Source: Candidatus Yonathbacteria bacterium RIFCSPHIGHO2_01_FULL_51_10
Lineage (GTDB): Bacteria; Patescibacteriota; Minisyncoccia; Phycocordibacterales; UBA1539_B
Reading direction: 5' to 3'
DNA: 33,684 nucleotides
NCBI GenBank assembly: GCA_001823505.1
Contig: MHUS01000016.1
Location: forward strand, 4,555 to 38,238
The translations under genes and the position numbers were made by a program. The notes below the pieces were generated by a model. It was not told the origin of the DNA, searched no databases, and saw only the letters and a list, made by a program, of their open reading frames with translations. This document shows positions 27,914-28,420 of the stretch, piece by piece. Every line of letters begins with the position of its first letter. Within the stretch, counting starts at the first letter, position 1.

Positions 27914-27917
27914 AAAC

Positions 27918-28112
27918 TTATTTTTTAAGTGATTTTTTAATACCAAGGTCGCGACAAATTTTTTGTGCAAGATGGTTGTTGATCTCAGCATGCCGCGGTA
28001 CTGTTGAAACACGGCGTGTTATCGCATTAAAAAATACGCTATGCGATGCACCTTCCCGCACAAGCGTACATCCTTCTTTATGGAGATGCTTGACGAGATC
28101 GAGTCGTTTCAT
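27918..28112 (-). CDS. hicA: HicA-family toxin (mRNA interferase)
   Basis: 64 aa. [29 protein letters not shown]...[23 protein letters not shown] matches the HicA pattern (G-x-H, PRH, kI-ckdLgI). Confidence 0.85.
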
Positions 28113-28337
28113 TTATGCGTGAGCTGAGACAATGAGTGGTTCACGTCTGGCATGCGCACCTGCATCTTCGCGGCTTATCAGACGATTCGTCTCAAGAACA
28201 AGACCGAGTGCTTCTTTAAGGTTTTTACGCGCTTCGGCAAGAGTATGCCCTTGTGTATTAACACCGGAAAGCTCCTCGACCCAACCGAGGTACCACTTTC
28301 CACTTTTTTTATATACGGCAGTAAATTGCTGCTTCAT
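28113..28337 (-). CDS. hicB: HicB-like antitoxin (UPF0150 fold), no DNA-binding C-terminal domain
   Basis: 74 aa. FTAVYKKSGKWYLGWVEELSGVNTQGHTLAEARKNLKEALGLVLE matches the HicB N-terminal domain. Its TAA directly abuts the hicA ATG. Confidence 0.8.
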   Translation of the reverse strand: MKQQFTAVYKKSGKWYLGWVEELSGVNTQGHTLAEARKNLKEALGLVLETNRLISREDAGAHARREPLIVSAHA

Positions 28338-28343
28338 TGCGCC

Positions 28344-28373
28344 ATGCTACCACGCATTATGCTTTTTCGTCAA
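28344..28373 (-). promoter_or_regulatory. Candidate promoter TTGACG-N18-(TGg)TAGCAT, 6 nt upstream of the hicB ATG (leaderless start predicted)
   Basis: Minus strand reads TTGACGaaaaagcataatgcgTGgTAGCATggcgcaATG. Confidence 0.35.
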
Positions 28374-28420
28374 ACAAAAAATCTTCACGCTCCCTAAAAC
28401 ATTAGCGACTATTCCAATGA

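Follow-up and report, generated by a model that had tools for sequence, protein, structure and literature searches.

A HicB-HicA toxin-antitoxin cassette at the atpG-atpD junction of an ATP synthase operon in a Yonathbacteria genome

The window analysed here is a stretch of 33,684 nucleotides (nt) from Candidatus Yonathbacteria bacterium RIFCSPHIGHO2_01_FULL_51_10 (assembly GCA_001823505.1, contig MHUS01000016.1, positions 4,555 to 38,238), and it carries an F1Fo ATP synthase operon in which a two-gene hicB-hicA toxin-antitoxin (TA) cassette lies between atpG and atpD, the genes for the gamma and beta subunits. HicBA is probably not a component of ATP synthase. With a probability of about 0.65, it represents a selfish and addictive module that was acquired horizontally and recently and that landed precisely in the short atpG-atpD spacer, a permissive junction, leaving both flanks intact. 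That a mobile TA module had landed, and was retained, in the atp operon had been proposed in an earlier sequence-only reading, and this proposal is now backed by empty sites in relatives and by copies of the cassette in five other genomic contexts.

The atp operon lies on the - strand in the order atpB-E-F-H-A-G-(hicB-hicA)-D-C, as taken from the list of open reading frames (ORFs) with Pfam matches for G, D and C (Table 1). The canonical atpBEFHAGDC order of F1Fo operons is thus kept, and all subunit genes are intact around the insert. Between the atpG stop (28421) and the atpD ATG (27913) there is a gap of 507 nt (27914-28420), while all remaining atp intergenic spacers in the window measure 3-35 nt. 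Both ORFs within the gap are on the operon strand, and the hicB stop abuts the hicA ATG (TAAATG). All coordinates given in the sequence-only reading are correct, as are the gap, the two abutting ORFs and the 4-nt distance from the end of hicA to the atpD start, which reads GTTT. Such a short hicA-atpD junction leaves no space for a terminator or a Shine-Dalgarno sequence. The N-terminus of AtpD (12 residues) is identical to that of relatives with an empty site. On the other side of the cassette, the 40 nt that follow the atpG stop resemble neither other cassette copies nor the spacers found in empty-site relatives.

As the source is a groundwater metagenome with several co-existing strains, a chimeric assembly could in principle have generated this arrangement. 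However, 18 contigs, which derive from at least 10 different samples, encode exactly these HicA and HicB proteins, and in every one of them the pair separates atpG from atpD. The contigs, which were retrieved by exact protein match, come from ENA, JGI and Logan assemblies and were produced by several assemblers. Several of them represent different strains, 97.3-99.3% identical to the window, with strain-specific single nucleotide polymorphisms (SNPs) that come as close to the edges of the 507-nt insert as 16 nt (28436) and 35 nt (27878). With SNPs this close to the edges, chimeric joining of a cassette-free strain could not have produced the arrangement. Mis-assembly, a concern already voiced in the earlier reading, is therefore ruled out.

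By profile match and predicted fold, the 64-amino-acid (aa) ORF belongs to the HicA toxin family. It matches Pfam HicA_toxin (PF07927) with E=1.5e-10 and 41.5 bits (cut-off 27) over profile positions 3-58 of 58. Its AlphaFold2 model, calculated with 28 homologues (pLDDT 86), shows the alpha-beta-beta-beta-alpha topology that resembles a double-stranded RNA-binding domain, with elements H3-12, E15-20, E24-29, E34-39 and H46-56. When this model was compared with the PDB by Foldseek, the best seven matches were all HicA proteins (including 6hpb, 6g26, 4p78, 1whz and 4c26), led by Escherichia coli HicA 6HPB (TM score 0.76/0.85, root mean square deviation 1.4 A) and including Burkholderia pseudomallei 6G26 and 4C26, Yersinia pestis 4P78 and Thermus thermophilus 1WHZ. 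At the sequence level, a single-sequence search of the PDB with HicA gave no match, a profile search reached E. coli HicA at E=0.057, and a search of NCBIfam matched neither HicA nor HicB. In the alignment of the HicA profile with E. coli HicA 6hpb, which extends from end to end, H24 falls in register with the His of the E. coli GSNH motif. Residues G21, H24 and P39-R40-H41 are invariant among 28 members of the subfamily, and the G-x-x-H loop within this set corresponds to Gly22 and His24 of B. pseudomallei HicA, both of which are needed for toxicity (PMC3969222). The earlier description of HicA proteins as ribosome-independent mRNA interferases needs a correction, as strict ribosome-independence has been questioned (PMC8546651).

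The preceding 74-aa ORF is, as judged from sequence comparisons, a single-domain HicB antitoxin and not one of the canonical two-domain architecture. It matches Pfam UPF0150 (E=5e-7) over residues 7-44 with a marginal 29.9 bits against a cut-off of 27.3. A profile built from 44 homologues recovered B. pseudomallei HicB from the PDB (6g1c, E=8.8e-4, 44 residues) and the T. thermophilus protein TTHA0281 (2dsy, E=0.013). No ribbon-helix-helix (RHH), helix-turn-helix (HTH) or other DNA-binding Pfam domain was found in HicB, in which about 24 residues follow the N-terminal domain; its tail has a conserved R-E-P motif. As the subfamily is uniformly 71-75 aa long (793 homologues, some of which carry the NCBI name HicB), there is no space for an RHH or HTH region, which argues for a single domain. 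The AlphaFold2 monomer (pLDDT 73) consists of a beta-hairpin and one long helix, and its best fold match in the PDB (E=0.87) is not significant, so the assignment rests on sequence and gene linkage. A HicB-like ORF lies directly upstream of HicA in 80 of the 80 loci fetched from species-representative genomes, and each of the two proteins has hundreds of homologues, from which it follows that these are not chance ORFs. From the letters alone the proteins had been recognised as HicA and as HicB/UPF0150-like without an RHH or HTH tail, and both names hold, with scores above the Pfam cut-offs and, for HicA, a confirmed fold.

Both genes are under strong purifying selection across cassette copies, as estimated from the ratio of non-synonymous to synonymous substitution rates (dN/dS), which is 0.07-0.14 for HicA and 0.05-0.11 for HicB at dS of at least 0.6; this estimate covers the cassette family and not this particular lineage. 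A HicB that passes the Pfam cut-off only just, and whose model has no fold match, might also be expected of a decaying, non-functional ORF remnant. Yet both ORFs are full-length and retain every invariant residue of the family, the family-wide dN/dS of 0.05-0.14 speaks against decay, and the promoter motifs are conserved. Taken together with the contig and SNP evidence given above, an artefact or dead DNA is hardly credible as an explanation.

The insertion is, by comparison with related sequences, recent and lineage-specific. An empty atpG-atpD junction is found in the closest AtpG relatives, namely at loci L182 (89% identity, 25 nt) and L186 (74%, 34 nt), and also in Candidatus Yonathbacteria RIFOXYD1_FULL_52_36 (L183-185), in which AtpG is 72% identical and the junction measures 27 nt. 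The spacing comparison with the closest genomes, which had been suggested along with the sequence-only reading, is in line with its proposal of an insertion. Among 80 metagenomic loci with a more distant AtpG, none had hicA or hicB at this junction. The empty sites in the nearest relatives rule out that the insertion was inherited vertically.

Nucleotide composition also sets the cassette apart from its surroundings. The GC content is 44.0% in the 507-nt gap and 44.5% in the cassette, compared to 54.9% in atpG and 56.1% in atpD, which puts numbers to an AT-richness earlier judged by eye. At third codon positions it drops to 37.3% in hicB and 32.3% in hicA, in contrast to 55-68% in the eight atp genes. 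Sister cassettes elsewhere have 42-45% GC and their host loci 44-49%, and the donor of the cassette was probably a lower-GC relative.

A further indication of recency comes from the co-existing strains. The 503 nt that comprise spacer, hicB and hicA contain 0-1 SNP (28254) among strains, whereas the adjacent atpD differs by 5.6-8.8% between the same strains (L008, L004) and atpG by 0.7-1.8%. The identical tract of roughly 0.5-1.3 kb is centred on the cassette (window 27837-28933 in comparison to L004, L005, L007, L008 and L010) and has at least three different breakpoints on the left and at least three on the right, beyond which the flanks diverge sharply (up to 8.8% in atpD). A tract of this kind with variable breakpoints suggests that the cassette is younger than the divergence of the strains and was spread, or had its flanks reshuffled, by homologous recombination. 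The near-invariance of the cassette against flanks that differ by up to 9% could serve as a natural marker of recent recombination or of a gene-specific sweep in an uncultivated population.

The closest homologues of HicA and HicB (77-91% identity) are encoded in other Parcubacteria in five other genomic contexts. Sister cassettes are located behind map, where the spc cluster of ribosomal-protein genes ends (L013-16, L188, L189), between rpsI and grpE-dnaK-dnaJ (L017-20), between putA and groES-groEL (L021), after nrdAB (L187) and next to a divergently oriented topA (L190). DNA homology to the copies at these unrelated loci amounts to 76-85% and stops at most about 4 nt away from the end of hicA. 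Its left edge lies about 40 nt upstream of the hicB ATG, at 28380 in the comparison with L190 (85% identity) and at 28378/28374 in those with L017 and L013 (76-77%). Near-identical cassettes, promoter included, in five other contexts show that the module is mobile. Hallmarks of transposons, insertion sequences (IS) or miniature inverted-repeat elements were searched for at the cassette boundaries, but no transposase gene, terminal inverted or direct repeats or target-site duplication was found there. The phage collection contained no related sequences, and the one plasmid match (57%) lies on a Gemmatirosa megaplasmid. At the map site (L013-L016, hicB 5772-5996 and hicA 6001-6195; also L188 and L189) the cassette is followed by genes for a Gly-rich protein, a protein of about 180 aa and a 916-aa ATPase resembling DUF8128, DUF87 and type IV secretion system DNA-transfer proteins. 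The locus might mark the border of an integrated conjugative element, from which the cassette could have come.

In Patescibacteria, short HicBA pairs of this family are often found co-directional and close upstream of housekeeping genes. Adjoining genes include those for enolase (L044, L042) and a pyruvate phosphate dikinase-like protein (L038), as well as ileS (L030), rpsO (L073), nrdB (L024), grpE (L017) and groES (L021). The distance to the downstream gene is -1 to 84 nt in seven cases and about 190 nt for groES. In one locus (L076:3746-6310) a HicBA pair lies between two paralogues of 322 aa and 372 aa, both of which end in a PEP-utilizers mobile domain.

The cassette brings a promoter-like element of its own, which the sequence-only reading had described and which is indeed present with a TTGACG -35 hexamer, an 18-nt spacer and a TG-n-TAGCAT extended -10 motif. 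It is one of two promoter-like matches that a consensus scan returned in 7.4 kb. When four cassette copies from different loci are aligned, TTTG-CGA (-35) and TA..AT (-10) are the sole non-coding columns without variation, and the geometry TTGACG-N18-TG-n-TA(G/T)CAT followed by 6 nt and ATG is kept in four of five copies, including L190. With 6 nt between the end of the -10 hexamer and the hicB ATG, this geometry predicts a leaderless hicB mRNA, promoter activity and transcription start both being deduced from sequence. On the operon strand, the sole strong terminator-like site from atpB to the end of atpC follows atpC. Neither a terminator nor a significant RNA structure was found between atpG and hicB (z = -1.0), and no Rfam family was found in 26000-33684. 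As no terminator intervenes, hicBA would be co-transcribed with the atp genes, and transcripts from the cassette promoter are predicted to run into atpD-atpC. As the sequence-only reading proposed, expression of atpDC may depend on read-through or on the cassette promoter.

That no Shine-Dalgarno sequence precedes atpD, as had been reported, is true but not specific to this junction. None was found within 25 nt upstream of any of the eight atp genes, where the upstream regions are A/T-rich, nor before atpD in relatives with an empty site. An effect of the insertion on the atpD start was therefore rejected as the reason for this absence. Towards its 3' end hicA is A-rich, which gives atpD an A/T-rich context like that of the ancestral spacer.

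These features can be combined into a probable course of events. A type II hicB-hicA cassette of about 465 bp would have entered a Yonathbacteria-like Parcubacterium, a member of the Patescibacteria or Candidate Phyla Radiation (CPR), by horizontal transfer. Its transcripts would stem from read-through of the atp promoter as well as from the extended -10 promoter of the cassette, the latter giving a leaderless hicB-hicA-atpD-atpC message. Translation of hicA would be coupled to that of hicB through TAAATG, and atpD would be started 4 nt past the hicA stop in an A/U-rich context without Shine-Dalgarno sequence that resembles the ancestral spacer. HicA is predicted to act as a His24-dependent mRNA endonuclease that HicB inactivates by direct binding. 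As HicB has no DNA-binding domain, the balance of toxin and antitoxin would depend on translational coupling and on the turnover of the proteins and not on autorepression. The module would then be selfish and addictive, and possibly also involved in abortive infection. It could persist because the junction tolerates co-directional cargo and because imprecise deletion within an essential operon would be lethal.

The atpG-atpD junction appears to be a recurrent site of insertion. It was claimed before that atp operons are normally uninterrupted, but this does not hold for relatives of the window, as 7 of 66 loci carry more than 400 nt between atpG and atpD (median spacer 35 nt). The corresponding figures are 3 of 64 loci between atpA and atpG (median 15 nt) and 0 of 45 between atpD and atpC (median 12 nt). 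Cargo at atpG-atpD comprises a RelB (E=2.7e-10) and YafQ (E=4e-27) pair in a gap of 2.26 kb (L110, 2864-3414), a membrane protein with a PemK/MazF-like toxin (L102, 3742-4143; E=1e-10), a PemK-like toxin (L144, 3677-4081; E=3e-12), a PemK-like toxin with a Ham1 nucleoside triphosphate (NTP) pyrophosphatase (L153 and L157; E=3e-12, L153:3906-4298) and ORFs without family assignment (L119, L156). All of this cargo is co-directional with the operon, and the spacer lengths of L157 equal those of L153. The cargo loci fall into three AtpG clades, each of which also has members with an empty site (L104, L127, L182), which suggests at least 4 or 5 independent acquisitions at this junction. At least three toxin families, two NTP pyrophosphatases and IS elements have used this one junction in the streamlined genomes of CPR bacteria. 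Perhaps this recurrence reflects a structural weak point of the operon, or a refuge in which selfish genes escape the deletion bias of reduced genomes.

Several details of these loci can be added. Ahead of the TA pair of L110 lie genes for a membrane protein of 178 aa and a coiled-coil-like protein of 230 aa (ORFs 1348-1884 and 1922-2614). The PemK-like genes directly follow atpG (in L144 and L153 at a distance of 3-6 nt from the stop), no antitoxin gene could be recognised for them, and in L153 a Ham1-family gene (4417-4977, E=2e-32) separates the PemK-like gene from atpD. Between atpA and atpG, an NTPase_I-T gene is present in L144 (2165-2698, E=1e-39) and L142 (561-1085, E=7e-37), and the ORF in L163 is identical. 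L105 carries an IS30-like transposase (HTH_38 and rve, 4256-5269) and a DDE_Tnp_4 gene (6244-6936) after atpG, both on the - strand; no atpD is found within 3 kb, and here, too, the atpG-atpD junction may be the point at which the operon is broken.

Some observations weigh against the reading of a selfish, recently inserted HicBA module. The recurrence of RNase toxins at atpG-atpD could mean functional coupling and not mere tolerance. The insertion would need a mechanism that does without transposase, terminal repeats or target duplication, and HicB has a marginal Pfam score, a weak PDB profile match and a predicted structure with no counterpart in the PDB. As dN/dS was determined family-wide, drift could already have set in for the copy in the window. 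Retrieval of the contigs through exact protein matches is in part a source of bias in the scarcity of SNPs, although this removes non-synonymous variants only, and the non-coding part (83 nt) is invariant as well, as are the synonymous sites.

Functional coupling or exaptation, in which the cassette or its promoter regulates the distal half of the operon and toxins are selected at atpG-atpD, is the main rival explanation, though an unlikely one. The beta and gamma subunits occur at 3:1 in ATP synthase. The cassette could raise transcription of atpD-atpC relative to atpG, or tie the synthesis of beta and epsilon, and with it the energy state, to a growth-arrest switch. Three unrelated families of mRNA interferases (HicA; YafQ in L110; PemK/MazF-like in L102, L144 and L153/L157) are present at the same junction in three AtpG clades, the PemK-like proteins of L102 and L153 (59% identical) resemble each other more than their AtpG proteins do (49%), and the cassette promoter points into atpDC with no terminator in between. 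The cassette is also common to diverged strains, as would be expected after a sweep, and other HicBA copies lie -1 to 84 nt upstream of enolase, ileS, rpsO, grpE and nrdB. However, the nearest relatives manage without the cassette. Its sisters occupy unrelated contexts, one of them beside a divergent topA, and none of at least 80 other HicA loci has atp genes nearby. CPR genomes are dense and consist mostly of housekeeping genes, so that a position next to core genes would be expected by chance. The sample is also small, and the independence of the PemK cases is uncertain. The broader idea that the gamma-beta junction of Parcubacteria is a selected harbour for independently acquired toxins (HicA, YafQ, PemK/MazF-like), co-opted to tune or gate the expression of beta and epsilon, is quite unlikely. 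If true, a growth-arrest switch would be tied to energy conversion in organisms that possess very few regulators.

Alternatively, the cassette might serve in anti-phage abortive infection, where shut-off of host transcription or translation by a phage would let the labile HicB decay and free HicA, with the atp site providing steady expression. Several type II TA systems act in phage defence. The spread or invariance of the cassette across diverged, co-existing strains, as for a beneficial accessory gene, and the strong purifying selection across its family would fit such a role. CPR bacteria are mostly without CRISPR (PMC12455944). However, neither HicA nor HicB matches a PADLOC family (E<=0.001), the phage collection had nothing related, and there is no defence island nearby, the neighbours being the atp genes and a glycosyltransferase/GH8 cluster. 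A defence function is thus improbable, and a selfish module in a permissive junction remains the preferred reading.

The TA system itself is ordinary and its interest lies in the location. An essential, stoichiometrically tuned operon has accepted, with no damage to be seen, a toxin cassette that brings a promoter and ends 4 nt before a start codon. At about 465 bp, probably leaderless and with an antitoxin that has no DNA-binding domain, the minimal cassette also offers a compact model of TA balance without transcriptional autoregulation.

Comparison with known systems shows which parts of the arrangement are familiar. The HicAB module of E. coli K-12 (6HPB) shares the two-gene type II organisation, the HicA fold and the G-x-x-H catalytic loop in register, at a sequence identity of about 27%. 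In E. coli, hicA is the first gene, the reverse of the order in the window cassette. Its HicB has a C-terminal DNA-binding domain and autoregulates, whereas the 74-aa HicB of the window consists of the N-terminal domain only, and the E. coli hicAB locus lies outside operons of essential genes. HicAB of B. pseudomallei (6G26, 6G1C, 4C26) gave the best profile match to HicB and the second-best fold match to HicA, and the Gly and His required in its toxin are conserved in the window HicA. Its HicB chain is 142 aa long (6g1n) and continues beyond the matched domain with a C-terminal region that the window HicB lacks, and the genes reside in an ordinary chromosomal context, unlike those described here. 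HicBA of Streptococcus pneumoniae has the order of antitoxin before toxin, as seen here, but the pneumococcal HicB has a DNA-binding domain. The single-domain architecture of the window HicB is shared with the stand-alone UPF0150 protein TTHA0281 of T. thermophilus (2DSY, E=0.013).

The most similar pairs are found in metagenome-assembled genomes (MAGs) of Patescibacteria, including Yonathbacteria, Niyogibacteria, Wolfebacteria and others. With HicB of 71-75 aa and HicA of 61-64 aa, these belong to the same subfamily (77-91% identity), have the same promoter-hicB-hicA cassette and are named HicA/HicB family proteins by NCBI. They are found after map, at rpsI/grpE, before groES, after nrdAB, beside topA and before eno, ileS and rpsO, and none is near atp genes, unlike the pair in the window. 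In cyanobacteria and chloroplasts the atp clusters are split between gamma and beta, so the two can be uncoupled transcriptionally without harm. That split involves separate loci and promoters, whereas the operon in the window is contiguous with the cassette in between. HicAB genes have been noted in ultra-small prokaryotes and Patescibacteria of groundwater (PMC9938205), and in Caldalkalibacillus thermarum TA2.A1 a mazEF pair is located just downstream of the F1Fo atp operon (PMC7561548). The latter is likewise a type II TA system beside an F1Fo operon, but it lies outside the subunit genes and encodes a different toxin family. The family is therefore already known, single-domain HicB and HicA being annotated in related MAGs, while its position in the window is undescribed. 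When the searchable library was queried for TA systems in combination with atpD, atpG-atpD or the atp operon, no published account of a TA module within such an operon came up; the sequence-only reading, too, knew of no description of this arrangement.

Table 1 Features of the atp operon and the inserted cassette, in coordinates of the window.
Feature	Coordinates	Strand	Basis or remark
atpB	32845..32108	-	ORF list; Pfam on identical contigs
atpE	32079..31852	-	ORF list; Pfam on identical contigs
atpF	31823..31380	-	ORF list; Pfam on identical contigs
atpH	31376..30969	-	ORF list; Pfam on identical contigs
atpA	30945..29383	-	ORF list; Pfam on identical contigs
atpG, F1 gamma, 308 aa	28421..29347	-	Pfam ATP-synt E=2e-84
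40 nt from atpG stop to cassette homology edge	28381..28420	-	Old spacer remnant or co-inserted DNA
hicBA cassette, ~465 nt (promoter, hicB, hicA)	27914..28380	-	DNA homology to copies elsewhere
Cassette promoter (predicted)	28344..28373	-	Consensus scan and conservation among copies
hicB, 74 aa	28113..28337	-	Pfam UPF0150
hicA, 64 aa	27918..28112	-	Pfam HicA_toxin
Junction from hicA stop to atpD ATG, GTTT, 4 nt	27914..27917	-	Read from sequence
atpD, F1 beta, 455 aa, intact	26546..27913	-	Pfam ATP-synt_ab, ATP-synt_ab_N, C-terminal domain
atpC, epsilon, 79 aa, last operon gene	26301..26540	-	Pfam ATP-synt_DE_N E=7e-20
Operon terminator, 13-bp stem then T-run	26246..26278	-	Terminator scan

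Two of the ATP synthase subunits can be described further. Epsilon is just 79 aa long and consists of the beta-sandwich domain without the C-terminal helical domain, a length it shares with epsilon of L183, and delta/OSCP (atpH) has 135 aa. Directly downstream of the atp operon, a polysaccharide cluster (17764-25962) encodes a glycosyltransferase of family 2 (GT2, 341 aa), a fusion of LPG_synthase_TM and GH8 (728 aa), a cellulose-synthase-like GT2 (524 aa), a PMT_2-LysM protein and a second GH8 protein (513 aa). Further on, a gene for a sigma-70 factor of the extracytoplasmic function type (14740-15339) is followed by two DUF5667 proteins (13521-14747 and 11273-12364), and a comparable sigma/DUF5667 pair is found near the atp operon of the relative L183.

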